A stretch of DNA of 64,000 nt from Escherichia coli (GTDB lineage Bacteria > Pseudomonadota > Gammaproteobacteria > Enterobacterales > Enterobacteriaceae): NCBI RefSeq assembly GCF_048403405.1, contig NZ_CP183129.1; one strand, given 5' to 3'. The notes under the pieces were generated by a model, which saw only the letters and a list, made by a program, of their open reading frames with translations, did not search any database and had not been told where the DNA came from. This document shows, in pieces, positions 16,797 through 25,577 of the stretch. The first letter of the stretch is position 1. Every line of letters begins with the position of its first letter. Made by a program: the position numbers and the translations under genes.

Positions 16797-18146
16797 TTAG
16801 ATAGCCCAGCCACCCGCATAGAAGGTCACCAGCGCCACAGCGATAACGACCGTACCGATGTTCAACTTGCGCCATTCGCCGGAAACCAGACGACCAATCA
16901 CCAGAGTCGCGAAGCCGATCATGATGCCTGTTACGATGTTACAGGTCAGCACGATGAATACCGCCGTAACCAGACCCGCCATCGCATCAACAAAATCAGC
17001 AAAGTCGATTTTCGCCACGTTACTCAGCATCAGCAGGCCAACGTACATCAGCGCCGGAGCCGTTGCATACCCCGGAACGAGGTAAGAGAGCGGAGAGAGG
17101 AACAGAATCAGCAGGAACAGCACGCCAACGGTGATAGCCGTCAACCCGGTTTTACCGCCCGCCGCCGTACCCGCCGCAGACTCGATGTATACCGCTGCCG
17201 GAGCTGCACCCACCAGGCCAGAGAAAACGCTGCTCATGGAGTCAGTGGTCAGTGCTTTACCGCCGTCGATGATCTGCCCATCTTTATCCAGCAGGTTCGC
17301 CTGACCGGCGACGGCGCGGATAGTTCCGGTGGCATCAAATACTGCCGTCATCACCAGCGCCAGAACGCTTGGCAGGACTACAGGATTCAGCGCGCCCATA
17401 ATGTCCAGGCTGCCAATCAGTGAATTGCCGTTTTCATCGCTCAATGAAGGCATGGCGAAAACGCCGGAGAAATGGACGTTAGGATCGAAGATCAAACCGA
17501 CAATTGAGATACCGATAATGGTCAGCAGAATGCCACCAGGGACTTTCAGTTTTTCCAGGCCGATGATCACCGCCAGACCTACCAGTGACATAATCACCGG
17601 GAAGGTCGCGAAATCACCCAGCGCAACGGGCAGACCATCAAGCGGGTTTTTAATCACCAGACCGACACCATTAGCGGCAATGAGCAGCAGGAACAGACCG
17701 ATACCGATCCCCGTGCCGTGCGCCACACCGTGCGGCAAGTTGCGCAAAATCCAGCTACGGATACCCGTGGCAGAAATTACCGTAAACAGTACACCCATCA
17801 GGAACACGGCACCCAGCGCGACAGGTACGCTAATATGTTGCCCCAGCACCAGACTGAATGCGGTAAACGCCGTCAGGGAGATGGCGCAACCAATCGCCAA
17901 CGGCAGATTAGCCCACAGACCCATCACGATAGAACCGAGTCCGGCAACCAGACAGGTCGCAACGAAAACTGCCGCAGGCGGGAAGCCTGCTTTACCCAAC
18001 ATGCCTGGAACGACGATAACCGAGTAGACCATCGCCAGAAATGTTGTTAACCCGGCAACCACTTCCTGACGGACAGTGCTTCCACGTTGTGAAATTTTAA
18101 ACCAGGCGTCGAGTGAACCGCCGGTACGCGCTGATGGCGTAGACAT
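16797..18146 (-). CDS. ghxP: guanine/hypoxanthine permease GhxP (YjcD), NCS2 family
   Basis: 449-aa polytopic membrane ORF; PurR-box-like sites upstream. Confidence 0.9.
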
Positions 18147-18260
18147 AAGAAAACATCCCCTGAGAGTTTAATTTTCGTCAAGATGCGTGGCGGACAATCC
18201 CCTGCCAGCGAAACGTTATCTTCCTGCTCCAGGTTTGCGACAAATTGGTGCGTCGCAAAA

Positions 18261-18276
18261 AAGCAAACGTTTAGCT
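18261..18276. promoter_or_regulatory. candidate PurR operator upstream of ghxP
   Basis: AAGCAAACGTTTAGCT contains the GCAAACGTTT core of the PurR box, about 120 bp upstream of ghxP start. Confidence 0.45.
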
Positions 18277-18402
18277 CCGCGCATACAAAACGGGTGGTAA
18301 AAAAAGCAAACGATTATCCGGCGATCATAGCGGCTTTTTCAACCGAAGTTTGCTGCTTTTTTCTCTTTTATTGTCTTGACGATGAAAAACCAGGCAATTG
18401 AT

Positions 18403-18418
18403 GCGCAAACGTTATCGT
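18403..18418. promoter_or_regulatory. second, weaker PurR-box-like site
   Basis: GCGCAAACGTTATCGT, partial match to the PurR consensus. Confidence 0.3.
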
Positions 18419-18559
18419 CGATGCGCAAGATTGCAGCGTTATCGAGCCGCATACCGTTCAGGATTGCGATAAAAAATCGTCTGAGATGACAAAAATATTG
18501 CGGCTAAAAAGTGTACTTTTACACTGGCGAAGAAACGCCGGTGACATACAATTAAAGCA

Positions 18560-18703
18560 TCAACACCAACCGGAACCTCCACCACGTGCTCGAATGAGGT
18601 GTGTTGACGTCGGGGGAAACCCTCCTGTGTACCAGCGGGATAGAGAGAAAGACAAAGACCGGAAAACAAACTAAAGCGCCCTTGTGGCGCTTTAGTTTTG
18701 TTC
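18560..18703 (+). ncRNA. sraL: candidate small RNA SraL (RyjA) in the ghxP-soxR intergenic region
   Basis: ORF-free stretch ending in a GC-rich hairpin (18668..18698) followed by a U-rich tract on the + strand, overlapping the soxR stop codon; position matches my recollection of SraL; 5' end is a guess. Confidence 0.4.
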
Positions 18704-19156
18704 ATCTTCCAGCAAGCGTGCGCCGGTACCTTCTTCTCCTAAGCGGTCGCCCGGGTTACGCAATGGGCAATCACTGCGCGAAAGGCAGCCACAACCAATA
18801 CATCCGTCCAGCTCGTCACGCAGCGCCACTAAGGTATGAATGCGCCGATCCAACTCTTCTCGCCATTGGGACGAAAGCTGTTTCCACTCTTTCGCACTTA
18901 ATGTATGCCCTTCGGGCAACACGCCAAATGCTTCACGAATGGTCGCCAGCGGAATGCCAATACGCTGAGCAATTTTGATGATTGCGACATATCGCAACAC
19001 ATCACGTTTATATCGCCGCTGATTGCCACTATTACGGATACTGCTAATCAACCCTTTGCTTTCATAGAAATGCAGCGCCGATACCGCCACACCGCTGCGT
19101 TTTGCCACTTCGCCGGGGGTTAGCAGCGCTTTAATGCGGGGTAATTTCTTTTCCAT
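18692..19156 (-). CDS. soxR: redox-sensing MerR-family regulator SoxR
   Basis: 154 aa, MerR HTH N-terminus and C-terminal [12 protein letters not shown] [2Fe-2S] cluster motif. Confidence 0.95.
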
Positions 19157-19167
19157 AAATCGCTTTA

Positions 19168-19185
19168 CCTCAAGTTAACTTGAGG
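19168..19185. promoter_or_regulatory. SoxR operator in the soxS promoter
   Basis: Perfect 18-bp palindrome CCTCAAGTTAACTTGAGG between a TTTACC -35-like hexamer (19164..19169) and TATACT -10 (19189..19194), 19-bp spacer. Confidence 0.85.
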
Positions 19186-19241
19186 AATTATACTCCCCAA
19201 CAGATGAATTAACGAACTGAACACTGAAAAGAGGCAGATTT

Positions 19242-19565
19242 ATGTCCCATCAGAAAATTATTCAGGATCTTATCGCATGGATTGACGAGCATATTGACCA
19301 GCCGCTTAACATTGATGTCGTCGCAAAAAAATCAGGCTATTCAAAGTGGTACTTACAGCGGATGTTCCGCACGGTGACGCATCAGACACTTGGTGATTAC
19401 ATTCGCCAACGCCGCCTGTTACTGGCCGCCGTTGAGTTGCGCACCACCGAGCGTCCGATTTTTGATATCGCAATGGACCTGGGTTATGTCTCGCAGCAGA
19501 CCTTCTCCCGCGTTTTCCGTCGGCAGTTTGATCGCACTCCCAGCGATTATCGCCACCGCCTGTAG
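19242..19565 (+). CDS. soxS: AraC-family superoxide response regulator SoxS
   Basis: 107 aa, MSHQKIIQDLIAWIDEHIDQPLNIDVVAKKSGYSKWYLQRMF; divergent from soxR. Confidence 0.95.
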   Translation: MSHQKIIQDLIAWIDEHIDQPLNIDVVAKKSGYSKWYLQRMFRTVTHQTLGDYIRQRRLLLAAVELRTTERPIFDIAMDLGYVSQQTFSRVFRRQFDRTPSDYRHRL

Positions 19566-19567
19566 TT

Positions 19568-21154
19568 TTATTGCCCGCGCGTTAACTCCCGCGCGGGTAA
19601 TTGCTCCATCCATTGCATAAACACCTGCGGCGGCATCGCCTTCGCAAAGAACCATCCCTGGCAATAGCGCACGCCGCGTTTGCGCAGCCAGTTAACCTGC
19701 TCCTCAGTTTCGACGCCTTCAGCGATCGTTTTTAACCCCAGACTGTGCGCCAGCTCGATGATGTGTTCCGCAATCAAATGACTGGTTTTATGGGTGGTCA
19801 GCGTCTCAACAAACGATTTATCGATTTTCAAAATATCGACATTCAATGATTTAAGGTTATGCAAGTTAGAGTAGCCAATACCAAAATCATCAATTGCCAC
19901 TTCGTAACCAGCCTGGCGGAAAGCCAGAATAATTGGTGTCATTTTGTCGACATCAAGAAATGCATGTTCAGTCACTTCAAATTTAATTTGCTGTGGACGC
20001 ACCGCGTATTGCTCTGTTTTCTGATTGGTTCGCGCTATCAACCGTGACGTATGAAAATCGGAGGCCGACAGGTTAATAGAAACATAGCGATCGGCATGTG
20101 TTGCCAGGTACGCGCCCAGATCGCGGAAGACATTATCAATAACATAATCAGTTACCTGTCCGATCATCCCCTCCTTTTCTGCCAGCGGAATAAACTCTGC
20201 CGGATTCATTACTTGCCCCTGCTCACCAGGCCAACGTAACAATGCTTCAGCGCCGATACATTTTTCTGTTTTGATATCGATTATTGGCTGGTAATAAAGG
20301 CAAAGTTGATGTTTTTCGAGGGCGCGTTGCAATTTGCGTTTGGGAGACAAATAGTTTTGCCGAATACGTAGCCAGAGTAATAACAGAACAAGACTCCCCA
20401 AAATACCGGCGGGTAACGCAAAAATAAGATGATTATAAAAATGCGCTATAAGACGTTGATATGAAGTCGCAACAATGGCTGCAATTGGGCGTTTTGTCGA
20501 ATAAACTGTCGCATATAAATAGCCATTTCTTTGTACGGTTAAATCATTCAAATGAATCAGTGGAGAAAACGTTGCTGCCGAGGCCTCGTTGCTTAACGAG
20601 AAAAAGGTTTTCGTTACCGTATCATACACACCCCATTGCAATGTCGGATCATCAGACATCACTTCACTCCAGAAGAGAGGGTTGATGACCACCACATAAT
20701 TTCCCCGCTGCATATAGGTCATTTTATAGCCAGAGAAAAAAGGCGTATCGCGGTAATAATAGATAGAAACGTTAGGTTCACGCTTATAATCGGCCGGTGC
20801 AATCGTATAGCCGTTTACAGGCGCTATCAGCGATGAGCATAAAAAATGGTTATCACGGGCATAGATCAATTCATTAATATAAAGATAGCCACGAATAATA
20901 TTCAACATTCGCTTTTGATGGGTTGGAGTGCAAACTTGCCCCTGATAGCGTTCAGCAGCATCGCTCACTAAATCTGCCTGGCGAATGACCAGCTCGGATT
21001 TATCCAGCGCCAGCTGAGCAAAAGTTTGGAGCTGACTATTCACTTCTGATTTTGCCCAAAGGAAGGCAATCCATAGCGACAGAATGATGGGAAAGAGAAC
21101 TAAAAAGATAATGCCCGGCAACGCCAGTAATTGGTGTCGTGCACGATGACTCAT
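19568..21154 (-). CDS. pdeC: c-di-GMP phosphodiesterase PdeC (YjcC), CSS-EAL domain protein
   Basis: Two TM segments flanking a periplasmic domain, C-terminal EAL domain; start taken at MSHRARHQ (528 aa). Confidence 0.9.
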
Positions 21155-21583
21155 TGCTATCAATTTCCTGCCTGTTTATACCCGGTCATTGCAAGGCGAG
21201 AACCCTGGTTATCGACGTCTTTAGATAAATCTTACGGTATAAATAGCACTTTTGCCTGATTTGAAATTGATACCTTTTTAATCGTCACCTGAATAAAAAT
21301 AATTCATTGATATTCAAAACTAATTTCCTACAGGAATGCAGAGGCGGTGGGAAGATATACCCTTAATGCCGCTGAAAAAACACATAATCTGTACGGCAAT
21401 AAAAATCACGGCCTAATCTGGCTAACAAACAATCAATTGTGATATAGTTCACAAAATTAATGAAACAAACAGAGTGTTTCATTTTTGTGTCCTGCAAGCC
21501 CCGCGATAGCCAGAGTGTACCACGCCTCCCGTGAACAACGCCGCGCTGTCCGAGGCATCGGCTCTTTTCAGAGGAATTGTTTG

Positions 21584-21865
21584 ATGGCTACCCTCACCAC
21601 TGGCGTGGTTCTTCTTCGCTGGCAACTTCTTAGTGCCGTAATGATGTTTCTGGCCAGCACACTCAACATCCGTTTTCGTCGGTCTGATTATGTCGGGCTT
21701 GCAGTGATCAGCAGCGGTCTGGGCGTGGTTTCTGCCTGCTGGTTCGCAATGGGGTTGCTTGGCATCACAATGGCGGATATCACCGCCATCTGGCACAACA
21801 TCGAGTCGGTGATGATAGAAGAGATGAATCAGACACCGCCACAATGGCCAATGATTTTGACTTGA
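21584..21865 (+). CDS. yjcB: small inner membrane protein YjcB
   Basis: 93-aa hydrophobic ORF starting MATLTTGVVLLRWQ followed by a strong rho-independent terminator. Confidence 0.75.
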   Translation: MATLTTGVVLLRWQLLSAVMMFLASTLNIRFRRSDYVGLAVISSGLGVVSACWFAMGLLGITMADITAIWHNIESVMIEEMNQTPPQWPMILT

Positions 21866-21871
21866 TATGTA

Positions 21872-21900
21872 GAAGCCTCCAAAACGGAGGCTTCTTTTTT
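21872..21900. terminator. rho-independent terminator after yjcB (bidirectional with ssb)
   Basis: GAAGCCTCC-AAAAC-GGAGGCTTC followed by TTTTTT. Confidence 0.8.
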
Positions 21901-21963
21901 ACGGCTGGCAGATGTTTTAATCATCCACCTTAAAACAATATAACCTATTGTTTTAATGAAAAA

Positions 21964-22500
21964 TCAGAACGGAATATCGTCATCAAAGTCCATCGGCGGC
22001 TCATTAGACGGTGCTGCCGGAGCAGACTGCTGCGGGCGAGACTGCGCGCCGCCGCTGAACTGATTGCCGCCCTGCGGCTGCTGAGGCTGACCCCAACCGC
22101 CCTGCGGCTGACCACCACCGATATTGCCACCTGCAGGAGCGCCACCACCCTGACGACCACCCAACATCTGCATGGTGCCGCCAACGTTCACCACGACTTC
22201 TGTGGTGTAGCGATCCTGACCGGATTGATCGGTCCATTTGCGGGTACGCAGCTGACCTTCGATATAAACCTGAGAACCTTTACGCAGATATTCGCTGGCC
22301 ACTTCTGCCAGTTTGCCGAACAGCACAACGCGGTGCCATTCAGTCTGCTCTTTCATCTCGCCGGTCGCTTTATCACGCCAGGATTCGGAAGTAGCCAGCG
22401 TAATGTTGGCAACTGCGCCACCATTTGGCATGTAGCGTACTTCCGGGTCCTGACCCAGATTACCAACGAGAATAACCTTGTTTACGCCTCTGCTGGCCAT
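21964..22500 (-). CDS. ssb: single-stranded DNA-binding protein
   Basis: 178 aa, [44 protein letters not shown], Gly/Gln-rich tail ending DFDDDIPF. Confidence 0.95.
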
Positions 22501-22653
22501 GTTCGTGTCTCCTGAAAAAAAATCGTTCTGAATAAGTGTAAACGCGCGATTGTACCATTACCAATAGCGCTTTTACTATGTTGTGACCTCGGTTCCGGGA
22601 AACAAACCTGGCCAGACATTGTTACACAACACTCCGGGTAATGCATTCCAATA

Positions 22654-22669
22654 CTGTATATTCATTCAG
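22654..22669. promoter_or_regulatory. LexA box in the ssb-uvrA divergent promoter region
   Basis: CTGTATATTCATTCAG matches CTGT-N8-ACAG, about 90 bp upstream of uvrA ATG. Confidence 0.8.
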
Positions 22670-22754
22670 GTTAATTTGTGTCATAATTAACCGTTTGTGA
22701 TCGCCGGTAGCACCATGCCACCGGGCAAAAAAGCGTTTAATCCGGGAAAGGTGA

Positions 22755-25577
22755 ATGGATAAGATCGAAGTTCGGGGCGCCCGCACCCATAATCTCAAAA
22801 ACATCAACCTCGTTATCCCCCGCGACAAGCTCATTGTCGTGACCGGGCTTTCGGGTTCTGGCAAATCCTCGCTCGCTTTCGACACCTTATATGCCGAAGG
22901 GCAGCGCCGTTACGTTGAATCCCTTTCCGCCTACGCGCGGCAGTTTCTGTCACTGATGGAAAAGCCGGACGTCGACCATATTGAGGGGCTTTCTCCTGCC
23001 ATCTCAATTGAGCAGAAATCGACGTCTCATAACCCGCGTTCTACGGTGGGGACAATCACCGAAATCCACGACTATTTGCGTTTGTTGTTCGCCCGCGTTG
23101 GCGAGCCGCGCTGTCCGGACCACGACGTCCCGCTGGCGGCGCAAACCGTCAGCCAGATGGTGGATAACGTGCTGTCGCAGCCGGAAGGCAAGCGTCTGAT
23201 GCTACTCGCGCCAATCATTAAAGAGCGCAAAGGCGAACACACCAAAACGCTGGAAAATCTGGCAAGCCAGGGTTACATCCGTGCTCGTATTGATGGCGAA
23301 GTCTGCGATCTTTCCGATCCGCCGAAACTGGAACTGCAAAAGAAACATACCATTGAAGTGGTGGTTGATCGCTTCAAGGTGCGTGATGATCTTTCCCAAC
23401 GTCTTGCCGAGTCGTTTGAAACTGCGCTGGAGCTTTCCGGTGGTACCGCGGTAGTTGCGGATATGGACGACCCGAAAGCGGAAGAGCTGCTGTTCTCCGC
23501 TAATTTCGCCTGCCCAATTTGCGGCTACAGTATGCGCGAGCTGGAGCCGCGACTGTTTTCGTTTAACAACCCGGCAGGGGCCTGCCCGACCTGTGACGGC
23601 CTTGGCGTGCAGCAATATTTCGATCCTGACCGCGTGATCCAGAATCCGGAACTGTCGCTGGCTGGCGGTGCGATCCGAGGCTGGGATCGCCGCAACTTCT
23701 ATTACTTCCAGATGCTGAAATCGCTGGCAGATCACTATAAGTTCGACGTCGAAGCGCCGTGGGGCAGCCTGAGCGCGAACGTGCATAAAGTGGTGTTGTA
23801 CGGTTCTGGCAAAGAAAACATTGAATTCAAATACATGAACGATCGTGGCGATACCTCCATTCGTCGTCATCCGTTCGAAGGCGTGCTGCACAATATGGAG
23901 CGCCGTTATAAAGAGACGGAATCCAGTGCGGTACGCGAAGAATTAGCCAAGTTTATCAGCAATCGCCCGTGCGCCAGCTGCGAAGGGACGCGTCTGCGTC
24001 GGGAAGCGCGCCATGTGTATGTCGAGAATACGCCGCTGCCTGCTATCTCCGACATGAGCATCGGTCATGCGATGGAATTCTTCAACAATCTCAAACTCGC
24101 AGGTCAGCGAGCTAAGATTGCGGAAAAAATTCTTAAAGAGATTGGCGATCGCCTGAAATTCCTCGTTAACGTAGGCCTGAATTACCTGACACTTTCCCGC
24201 TCGGCAGAGACACTTTCTGGCGGTGAAGCCCAGCGTATCCGTCTGGCGAGCCAGATTGGTGCGGGCCTGGTTGGCGTTATGTACGTGCTGGACGAGCCGT
24301 CTATCGGCCTGCACCAGCGCGATAACGAGCGCCTGTTGGGTACGCTTATCCATCTGCGCGATCTCGGTAATACCGTGATTGTGGTGGAGCACGACGAAGA
24401 CGCGATTCGCGCCGCTGACCATGTGATCGACATTGGCCCGGGCGCAGGTGTACACGGCGGTGAAGTGGTCGCAGAAGGTCCACTGGAAGCGATTATGGCA
24501 GTGCCTGAGTCGTTGACCGGGCAGTACATGAGCGGTAAACGCAAGATTGAAGTGCCGAAGAAACGCGTTCCGGCGAATCCGGAAAAAGTGCTGAAGCTGA
24601 CAGGCGCACACGGTAATAACCTGAAAGACGTGACGCTGACGCTGCCAGTCGGTCTGTTTACCTGCATCACAGGGGTTTCAGGTTCCGGTAAATCGACACT
24701 GATTAACGACACACTGTTCCCGATTGCCCAACGCCAGTTGAATGGGGCGACCATCGCCGAACCGGCACCGTATCGCGATATTCAGGGGCTGGAGCATTTC
24801 GATAAAGTGATCGATATCGACCAAAGCCCAATTGGTCGTACTCCGCGTTCTAACCCGGCGACCTATACCGGCGTGTTTACGCCTGTGCGCGAACTGTTTG
24901 CGGGCGTACCGGAATCCCGTGCGCGCGGTTATACGCCAGGACGTTTCAGCTTTAACGTCCGTGGCGGACGCTGCGAAGCCTGTCAGGGCGACGGCGTGAT
25001 CAAAGTGGAGATGCACTTCCTGCCGGATATCTACGTGCCGTGCGACCAGTGCAAAGGTAAACGCTATAACCGTGAAACGCTGGAGATTAAGTACAAAGGC
25101 AAAACCATCCACGAAGTGCTGGATATGACCATCGAAGAGGCGCGTGAGTTCTTTGATGCGGTGCCAGCTCTGGCGCGTAAGCTGCAAACGTTGATGGACG
25201 TTGGCCTGACGTACATTCGCCTCGGGCAGTCCGCAACCACCCTTTCTGGTGGTGAAGCCCAGCGCGTGAAGCTGGCGCGTGAGCTGTCAAAACGCGGCAC
25301 CGGGCAGACACTGTATATTCTTGATGAGCCGACCACCGGTCTGCACTTCGCCGATATTCAGCAACTGCTCGACGTACTGCATAAACTGCGCGATCAGGGC
25401 AATACCATTGTGGTGATTGAACACAATCTCGACGTGATCAAAACCGCTGACTGGATTGTCGACCTGGGACCGGAAGGCGGCAGTGGTGGCGGCGAGATCC
25501 TCGTCTCCGGTACGCCAGAAACCGTCGCGGAGTGCGAAGCTTCGCATACGGCACGCTTCCTCAAGCCGATGCTGTAA
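22755..25577 (+). CDS. uvrA: excinuclease ABC subunit UvrA
   Basis: 940 aa, two ABC ATPase modules ([20 protein letters not shown]) and zinc-finger Cys clusters. Confidence 0.97.

Follow-up and report, generated by a model that had tools for sequence, protein, structure and literature searches.

What lies between the divergent genes pdeC and yjcB of Escherichia coli: a gene of its own, or a control region for its two neighbours? The locus was analysed in a 64-kb window, the whole stretch of DNA under study, to whose first letter all positions refer; features given here without a strand have none assigned. The ORF list and the RefSeq annotation of identical and near-identical genomes give the gene order soxR, soxS, pdeC (minus strand), yjcB (plus strand), ssb (minus strand) and uvrA (plus strand), which confirms the divergent orientation that the first-pass annotation had assigned to pdeC and yjcB. 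The gap described there is real, but its limits have to be revised. It had been placed at 21164-21583 (420 bp) with an upstream TTG as the start of pdeC, whereas the RefSeq start is the ATG at 21154, and the whole intergenic spacer as defined by ORFs, RefSeq annotation and composition covers 21155-21583 (429 bp, GC 0.408). The spacer is present once per genome in 5,423 of 5,426 complete E. coli genomes, with 90-100% identity, and RefSeq lists no feature inside it in MG1655, ER3413, TUM14771 or H10407.

The earlier description of the gap as unusually long and AT-rich was overstated. Of the 31 gaps in the surrounding 40 kb only one is longer, the 545-bp ghxP/soxR gap with sraL inside it, and the same 40 kb hold further divergent gaps of 400, 392 and 317 bp. 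Its GC content of 0.408 compares with a mean of 0.407 for the local gaps of at least 100 bp in these 40 kb, and the 90 bp nearest to yjcB are GC-rich. The composition is patchy, with AT-rich tracts at 21220-21340 and 21400-21490 (GC 0.27-0.30) and a GC-rich stretch at 21490-21580 (GC 0.62-0.65). The spacer is indeed poor in ORFs, as had been noted; it holds only short ones of 21-44 aa, none of them conserved. Our data indicate that the spacer is very probably a shared divergent control region and not a gene, and that it is of an ordinary and largely documented kind.

Conservation of the spacer

For comparison, 35 loci were retrieved via the PdeC protein, with one genome per species; yjcB was located in 30 of them and the spacers were aligned. 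Retrieval via PdeC is unbiased towards the spacer, and these 30 are the unbiased loci of all counts given below. Spacer length differs among genera, from 429-447 bp in Escherichia and 540-760 bp in Citrobacter, Salmonella and Silvania to about 2.2 kb in many Enterobacter and Lelliottia, in which a GGDEF gene is inserted. Conservation analysis across Enterobacteriaceae, which had been proposed as a check, gave a divided answer: about 170 bp adjoining yjcB are strongly conserved, but the centre is unconserved even in Escherichia. The string GTGATATAGTTCACA is identical in 29 of the 30 PdeC-retrieved loci and one base off in the 30th, over a range from Escherichia to Silvania and Pluralibacter. 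A second block, on the pdeC side at 21221-21277, is almost invariant within Escherichia (six Escherichia sequences). At about 21300-21372 the same kind of comparison, again with six Escherichia sequences, gave 13-40% invariant columns together with indels, and the middle of the spacer is unconstrained filler. YjcB itself belongs to Pfam PF15940, a family with 217 hits, of which all named ones are from Enterobacteriaceae.

Candidates for a hidden gene

The first-pass annotation had suggested that a small RNA or a small protein without annotation might lie in the gap. In favour of this, the gap is long and several ORFs of 21-44 aa occur on both strands, including a 24-aa ORF at 21460 and a 26-aa ORF at 21336-21416, and some gene callers give N-terminally extended YjcB models of 106-159 aa. 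The suggestion was nevertheless not borne out, since Rfam, the terminator scan, the conservation of the centre and the conservation of the ORFs all gave negative results. An Rfam search at E<=10 over 18000-23000 found no match in the gap; the only matches were sraL (18559-18699) and terminator look-alikes after yjcB. A strict promoter and terminator scan detected no promoter and no terminator-like site within the gap. Neither a promoter and terminator of its own, nor a conserved sequence or structure, nor an Rfam family marks a small RNA gene here, and no ORF of the gap keeps its start, frame and stop in relatives. MG1655 RefSeq lists small proteins and sRNAs elsewhere and none here.

The individual ORFs were rejected one by one. 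The 26-aa ORF at 21336-21416 is confined to E. coli; its ATG is absent in the other Escherichia species, and it lies in a region with 13-40% invariant columns. The 24-aa ORF at 21460, which starts 4 nt after the yjcB start site, stops after 4 codons in E. albertii. On the minus strand, ORFs of 33 and 44 aa shift frame through indels of 1-2 nt, and the minus-strand ORF over the conserved block changes frame between genera because of a spacer of 9-11 nt. An N-terminally extended YjcB starting from the TTG at 21485 was rejected because the alignments show indels whose lengths are not multiples of three, and such non-triplet indels are found in the conserved parts. A hidden gene is therefore very improbable.

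Promoter of yjcB and its CRP site

A sigma-70 extended -10 promoter with a weak -35 region and a mapped start drives yjcB. The extended -10 element TGaTATAGT lies at 21440-21448 on the plus strand, inside the invariant 15-mer. It matches TATAAT at 5 of 6 positions in addition to the TG, has the top plus-strand score in a crude promoter matrix and is invariant in 29 of the 30 PdeC-retrieved loci. An RNA polymerase holoenzyme SELEX table gives the yjcB promoter as CTAACA-15-TATAGT (PMC3946193). The -35 region (21419-21427, plus strand) can be read as TGGCTA with an 18-bp spacer, a match of 3 of 6 positions, or as CTAACA with a 15-bp spacer, and the strict promoter scan did not report either. CTGG and the A-rich run that follows it in this region are kept in all genera. 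In a re-analysis of Cappable-seq data, the primary yjcB start in MG1655 is 4275169 on the minus strand and is enriched in all three treatments, novobiocin, rifampicin and tetracycline (PMC12987492, Table 1). This start corresponds to 21456 on the plus strand of the window because the yjcB ATG is at 4275041 in MG1655 and at 21584 here. It lies 8 nt downstream of TATAGT and gives a 5' UTR of 128 nt. The Shine-Dalgarno sequence AGAGGA, in which GAGG is invariant, and the ATG at 21584, which is also the RefSeq start of this PF15940 protein, occupy 21570-21586 on the plus strand. Few genes respond to acid as strongly as yjcB, whose log2 fold change at pH 4.4 is 5.9 in RNA and 7.7 in Ribo-seq. At this pH the ribosome occupancy of yjcB rises more than its mRNA.

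The core promoter coincides with a perfect CRP core, TGTGA-N6-TCACA, which the same 15-mer forms at 21438-21453 (22-mer 21435-21456). Relative to the yjcB start, its centre is at -10.5. This core is the sole perfect match in the 64-kb window, and the -10 hexamer TATAGT forms its 6-bp spacer. The core is invariant across genera. The TCACA on the 3' side of the -10 element is invariant in all 30 unbiased loci, which goes beyond the needs of the promoter. yjcB was among the best new CRP predictions of PhyloScan in 2007, and deletion of crp raised yjcB expression in RNA-seq and qPCR at both pH 7.5 and pH 5.5 (PMC13339887, 2026). A literature search found no report of direct CRP binding at the yjcB promoter. 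CRP centred at -10.5 would cover the -10 element and the start site, and this position therefore predicts repression. Together with the effect of crp deletion, the yjcB promoter appears to be CRP-repressed, and we infer from the position of the site that cAMP-CRP represses by occlusion. Bound over the -10 element and the start, cAMP-CRP would shut the promoter, and low cAMP, as under glucose or stress conditions, would open it. Activation of the divergent promoter by CRP from -41.5 or -61.5 was also considered and rejected, as neither the promoter matrix nor a reading of the sequence gave a usable -10 element on the minus strand.

A KdgR-type palindrome after the start site

Directly downstream of the yjcB start lies a perfect inverted repeat. 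Its 9-nt arms, AATGAAACA (21459-21467, +4 to +12, plus strand) and TGTTTCATT (21475-21483), are separated by 7 nt, and the whole element extends from +4 to +28. TGnAAC in the left arm and GTTTCATT in the right arm are invariant in all 30 unbiased loci, while the sequence between them differs in content and length. The operator consensus of KdgR, an IclR-family repressor, is AAATGAAACAnTGTTTCATTT, and the two arms agree with KdgR half-sites at 9/10 and 10/10 positions. A canonical 21-mer that resembles this consensus, AACAAACAGAGTGTTTCATTT, is found at 21464-21484 (+9 to +29), with the invariant TGTTTCATT as its right half. Its score is 15/20 in E. coli and ranges over 12-17/20 among the 30 unbiased orthologues. 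The values of 16-17/20 come from Citrobacter, Salmonella, Silvania and some Enterobacter, which have GAAACA as the inner left half. When the promoters of proven K-12 KdgR targets were fetched and scored in the same way, their boxes reached 17/20 (kdgT), 15/20 (kdgK) and 17/20 and 19/20 (kduI). In 1.17 Mb of fetched loci, KdgR-like sites with a score of at least 15 occurred 125 times at yjcB promoters versus 5 times elsewhere, and no site elsewhere scored 16 or more.

The resemblance to KdgR operators is specific, but the element is a candidate KdgR site rather than an established member of the regulon. The three KdgR-type half-sites at +4 to +29 may form an operator directly downstream of the start, at which KdgR, or a regulator that shares its half-site, would bind and act as a roadblock repressor. 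The constraint on the halves is unequal: the right half is invariant, and the canonical left half is variable (12-17/20 for the 21-mer overall) and decayed in Escherichia. The distance from TGnAAC to GTTTCATT varies between 9 and 11 bp, a poor fit to a rigid dimer, and the invariant outer left half is 6 bp too far upstream for a dimer. Genes over-expressed in a kdgR-deleted strain include kdgT, kdgK, kduD, kduI, asr and hyi, and yjcB is absent from this list, which is thresholded and comes from a single condition in which repression by CRP and H-NS was intact. A literature search found no link between KdgR and yjcB, one genome-wide table naming both without linking them, and no report of direct KdgR binding at the yjcB promoter.

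Two other explanations of the palindrome were considered. The repeat at +4 to +28 could act as RNA, with AAUGAAACA and UGUUUCAUU pairing in a 5'-terminal stem-loop. Such a structure would make the yjcB mRNA more stable or, together with the U-run of E. coli, attenuate transcription. A stem of 9 perfect base pairs with a 7-nt loop would begin 3 nt after the yjcB start, and UUUUU follows it in E. coli. Its loop varies in sequence and in length (7-9 nt) while the 9-nt arms are conserved, a pattern easier to reconcile with a hairpin than with a dimeric protein. However, opposite a fixed T the left arm has A, T or C at its fourth position, so that most genera would have a central mismatch, and folding of the alignment gave no compensated pair there. 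The U-run is absent outside Escherichia, and the match of the arms to KdgR half-sites at 9/10 and 10/10 positions would be an improbable coincidence for a purely structural element. The uncompensated changes at this fourth position make the RNA reading weaker than the operator reading, and we regard the former as unlikely.

The second explanation keeps the operator but assigns it to a regulator other than KdgR, such as another IclR-family protein or OmpR, which would act as the switch for induction of yjcB by acid or antibiotics. The invariant TGnAAC fits the half TG(A/T)AACA of the OmpR consensus. Such a switch would also suit the strong acid induction of yjcB (log2 fold change of 5.9 in RNA and 7.7 in Ribo-seq at pH 4.4), the detection of its start under three antibiotics and its absence from the kdgR-deletion list. 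Against this, the upstream half of the OmpR consensus is not matched (3/10 in a by-eye count), and the full 21-mer reaches 16-17/20 against the KdgR consensus in several genera, a level that no site away from the yjcB promoters attains in the 1.17 Mb. OmpR and other IclR-family proteins are candidates, and their involvement seems rather improbable. Cra and LacI-family sites, NikR, the PhoP box, Fur, NagC and BasR seemed either to fit poorly or to need a different spacing. The preferred reading of the palindrome remains a candidate operator for KdgR or for another protein that recognises its half-site.

The GC-rich leader of yjcB

Within the 128-nt leader, a GC-rich conserved segment at 21498-21556 (plus strand) can be folded into an imperfect 59-nt hairpin with a GAUAGC/GCUGUC helix and a CACG/CGUG tip. 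Conservation of this segment extends over Escherichia, Citrobacter, Salmonella, Silvania and Pluralibacter; Enterobacter and Lelliottia lack it. Its indels have lengths that are not multiples of three. Even at E<=10, each of 5,424 genomes gave a single place for it, and a repeat of the REP/BIME type is ruled out by this single copy. In 30 sequences the hairpin model leaves 82% of cells paired, versus 23-43% with slid partners, the model having been derived from one of these sequences. Covariation is marginal, with 5 doubly changed pairs versus 3.4 expected, and seven sequences keep the tip pair through a two-sided change from GC to AU. The folding energy of 149 nt is no better than that of shuffled sequences (z = -0.7; mostly -1.4 to +0.8 per species), and the RNAalifold consensus of the 30 sequences retains 8 pairs. 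Three metagenomic lineages whose leader is unrelated in sequence carry GC-rich hairpins in the same position as well (z = -3.3 in L094 and -1.8 in L101).

A role of the leader in mRNA stability or translation is possible, and the conserved hairpin may tune either of them. A bolder proposal is that 21498-21556 is a new cis-regulatory RNA, for instance an element that responds to pH or to a ligand or a docking site for an sRNA, that controls translation of yjcB. Conservation of primary sequence across several genera in non-coding DNA, survival of the hairpin despite indels, the GC to AU changes at the tip in seven sequences and the hairpins of the lineages with unrelated leaders would all agree with this, as would the larger rise of ribosome occupancy than of mRNA at pH 4.4. 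However, the segment has no Rfam match at E<=10, its folding energy is no better than that of shuffles, the 30-sequence consensus fold shrinks to 8 pairs, the double changes hardly exceed expectation, and Enterobacter and Lelliottia do without the leader. We therefore consider a new cis-regulatory RNA improbable.

The palindrome and the leader can be combined in one scheme. yjcB would then belong, so far unnoticed, to the targets of KdgR or of another regulator that recognises this half-site, through an unusual three-half-site operator at +4 to +29 on a CRP-occluded promoter. The leader hairpin would act in addition at the level of translation and so account for the larger rise of ribosome occupancy than of mRNA in severe acid. 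This scheme is tentative, and we put it forward as a possibility that is more doubtful than probable.

Reported binding of MarA, SoxS and H-NS

MarA binding to the spacer is documented. In ETEC H10407, a MarA ChIP-seq peak was found in yjcB<>yjcC, and binding in vitro was given a gel-shift score of '++' (Sharma et al. 2017, PMC5684230, Table 1). yjcB is also cited as a SoxS ChIP-exo target. Coordinate mapping places the centre of the MarA peak (4737304 in H10407) at 21463, on the yjcB start. The site proposed there by MEME lies at 21396-21410 on the plus strand, centred at -53 from the yjcB start, and reads gcaataaaagtcacg in H10407 and K-12 and GCAATAAAAATCACG here (PMC5684230). In H10407, gcaataaaagtcacg occupies 4737357-4737371, which is 21396-21410 here; the 'site centre' of 4737238 in the published table is mirrored and at odds with the sequence, a point that the present map corrects. 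Compared with the marbox consensus AYnGCACnnWnnRYYAAAYn, this site matches 10 of the 14 specified positions, a score that is common by chance, and in the Escherichia alignment it is not conserved outside E. coli. The best marbox-like 20-mer in the gap, ATAGCACTTTTGCCTGATTT (21243-21262, plus strand), matches 11 of 14 and is not significant alone, as 98 sites in the 64-kb window reach this level on both strands. The MEME site is therefore a candidate for the exact contact of MarA. MarA, and SoxS by citation, binds over or just upstream of the yjcB promoter and probably activates it under antibiotic or oxidative stress. The SELEX table flags H-NS for the pdeC-yjcB spacer (PMC3946193), and the AT-rich tracts fit the H-NS binding reported for it.

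The pdeC side of the spacer

The Shine-Dalgarno sequence of pdeC, AGGAAA, lies at 21164-21169 on the minus strand, 9 nt before the ATG at 21154, and its CCCTG/TTCCT core is kept in all genera. Further upstream is the Escherichia-invariant block at 21221-21277 (minus strand), which shows 100% identity over 21245-21274 in six Escherichia sequences and is the likely promoter region of pdeC; other genera carry TGCTAATAT at the homologous place. On the minus strand of this block, a candidate extended -10 element TGcTATTTA (21248 to 21240) and a candidate -35 element TTTCAA (21266 to 21261) can be recognised from the sequence. No strong sigma-70 promoter was found on the minus strand of the gap by the strict scan and a crude matrix. 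The block probably carries a weak pdeC promoter of the RpoS type, with a start near 21233, for which the TGn-extended -10-like motif would serve. RpoS dependence has been reported for yjcC and would fit a weak extended -10 promoter. The SELEX paper proposed TTTTCA-16-TATAAA as the yjcC promoter from sequence (Shimada, PMC3946193). This promoter is doubtful because its start would fall within the ribosome-binding site of pdeC and its -35 element is altered here (TTCTCG).

Significance of the regulatory map

The first-pass annotation was right in expecting complex promoters. The spacer holds the mapped yjcB promoter with its overlapping CRP site, a region bound by MarA and SoxS, an H-NS flag, the operator-like palindrome, the leader and the likely pdeC block. 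Most of these parts are already in the literature, namely the promoter with its start site, the predicted CRP site with the effect of crp, the binding of MarA and SoxS, and H-NS. As new but modest leads, there remain a candidate KdgR-type operator and a conserved leader. The significance of the spacer is limited, since it is a normal bacterial control region. The analysis yields a testable regulatory map for yjcB, an uncharacterised small membrane protein that is strongly induced by severe acid and whose start is seen under all three antibiotics.

Comparison with known systems

Promoters that are repressed by CRP from a site over the -10 element or the start are known, as in the type of cyaA P2. 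The yjcB promoter resembles them in having a consensus CRP site on the core promoter, not at -41.5 or -61.5, and in its increased expression in a crp mutant. It differs in that the -10 hexamer TATAGT is itself the spacer of the CRP site and is invariant across genera, and in that occlusion at yjcB is deduced from the position of the site.

The KdgR operators of K-12 kdgT, kdgK and kduI share the half-site found at yjcB, and the yjcB scores of 15-17/20 fall within their range of 15-19/20. A CRP site accompanies the yjcB box, which is a further likeness to these operators. Unlike them, yjcB has three half-sites and not two, and in Escherichia its canonical left half is decayed, with a perfect left half 6 bp further upstream. 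It also differs from the K-12 KdgR targets in encoding a small membrane protein for which no connection with the catabolism of KDG or pectin is known, and in that derepression of yjcB was not reported in the kdgR-deleted strain.

With promoters of the MarA/SoxS/Rob regulon, yjcB shares MarA binding in ChIP-seq and in vitro, SoxS ChIP-exo binding by citation, and a start detected under antibiotics. In contrast to them, its marbox is poor (10/14) and specific to E. coli, and the peak centre lies on the core promoter.

The closest parallel to the CRP box comes from Klebsiella pneumoniae, in which a TGTGA-N6-TCACA box located some 400 bp upstream of yjcC was interpreted as an FNR box, and reporters responded to paraquat only when the fragment included the distal part bearing the box (Huang et al. 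2013). Both species carry the same box. The authors regarded it as an FNR site acting on yjcC, whereas the E. coli box coincides with the yjcB promoter and is separated from the start codon of pdeC by about 290 bp. By-eye counts gave 7/10 against FNR and 10/10 against CRP, and the FNR reading was rejected. By its sequence, the Klebsiella 'FNR box' is a CRP core on the yjcB promoter, which corrects the published assignment.

Results

Many genomes of Enterobacter, Lelliottia and Pluralibacter carry a gene for a 492-aa GGDEF protein (diguanylate cyclase) between the yjcB promoter and pdeC, for example at 1183-2661 of the fetched locus L020; the other carriers are L012, L014, L018, L023, L024, L028 and L033-L035. 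The gap reaches approximately 2.2 kb in these carriers because of this insertion, and the inserted gene adjoins pdeC, which encodes the c-di-GMP phosphodiesterase. PdeC (19571-21154, minus strand, in the window) shares 86-90% amino-acid identity with its counterparts in L002-L005, from other Escherichia species, whereas the adjacent SoxS and Ssb share 95-99% in the same comparison. These identities point to fast divergence of PdeC among Escherichia species, unlike its neighbours. The annotation of ETEC H10407 treats pdeC (4737613-4739199; locus L162) as a pseudogene interrupted by an internal stop, and H10407 is the strain used for MarA ChIP-seq by Sharma et al. 2017 (PMC5684230). For yjcB<>yjcC, the same spacer, the 'MEME site centre' of 4737238 in their Table 1 disagrees with the position of the quoted site sequence, which is found at H10407 4737357-4737371 (458-472 of L162). 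The published centre appears to be a mirror image about the peak centre.

The 8-nt direct repeat CAGAGTGT occurs upstream of yjcB at 21470-21477, in the spacer of the KdgR-operator-like palindrome, and at 21511-21518, within the conserved leader, and could have arisen by chance. The 28-nt promoter pattern is also present in four metagenome contigs (L075, L077, L116 and L143) with no yjcB downstream, which may reflect chance or a different context. E. coli-like pdeC/yjcB/ssb contigs with 94-98% protein identity (L027 and L036) come from assemblies labelled Flavobacterium paronense and Thiomicrorhabdus cannonii, and are most likely contamination of those assemblies.

The ghxP/soxR gap (545 bp) is the only nearby gap longer than that between pdeC and yjcB, and within it the Hfq-binding sRNA sraL/RyjA is matched over its full length (18559-18699, plus strand; Rfam RF01408, 153 bits). 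The yjcB/ssb gap (21866-21963, 98 bp) has a single strong, bidirectional terminator-like hairpin at 21871-21895. According to a 2024 paper, the yjcB/ssb junction is integration hotspot 39, which in some strains is occupied by an 18-kb Detocs/dGTPase defence island; the hotspot is empty in the window.

Discussion

The layout of pdeC and yjcB resembles that of pdeH and kdgK in K-12. The KdgR-regulated kdgK and pdeH are divergent from each other (region 6421-8349 of the MG1655 locus L160; MG1655 3678420-3680348), and pdeH, like pdeC, encodes a c-di-GMP phosphodiesterase. In the K-12 pair, the KdgR box is situated in the spacer common to both genes.
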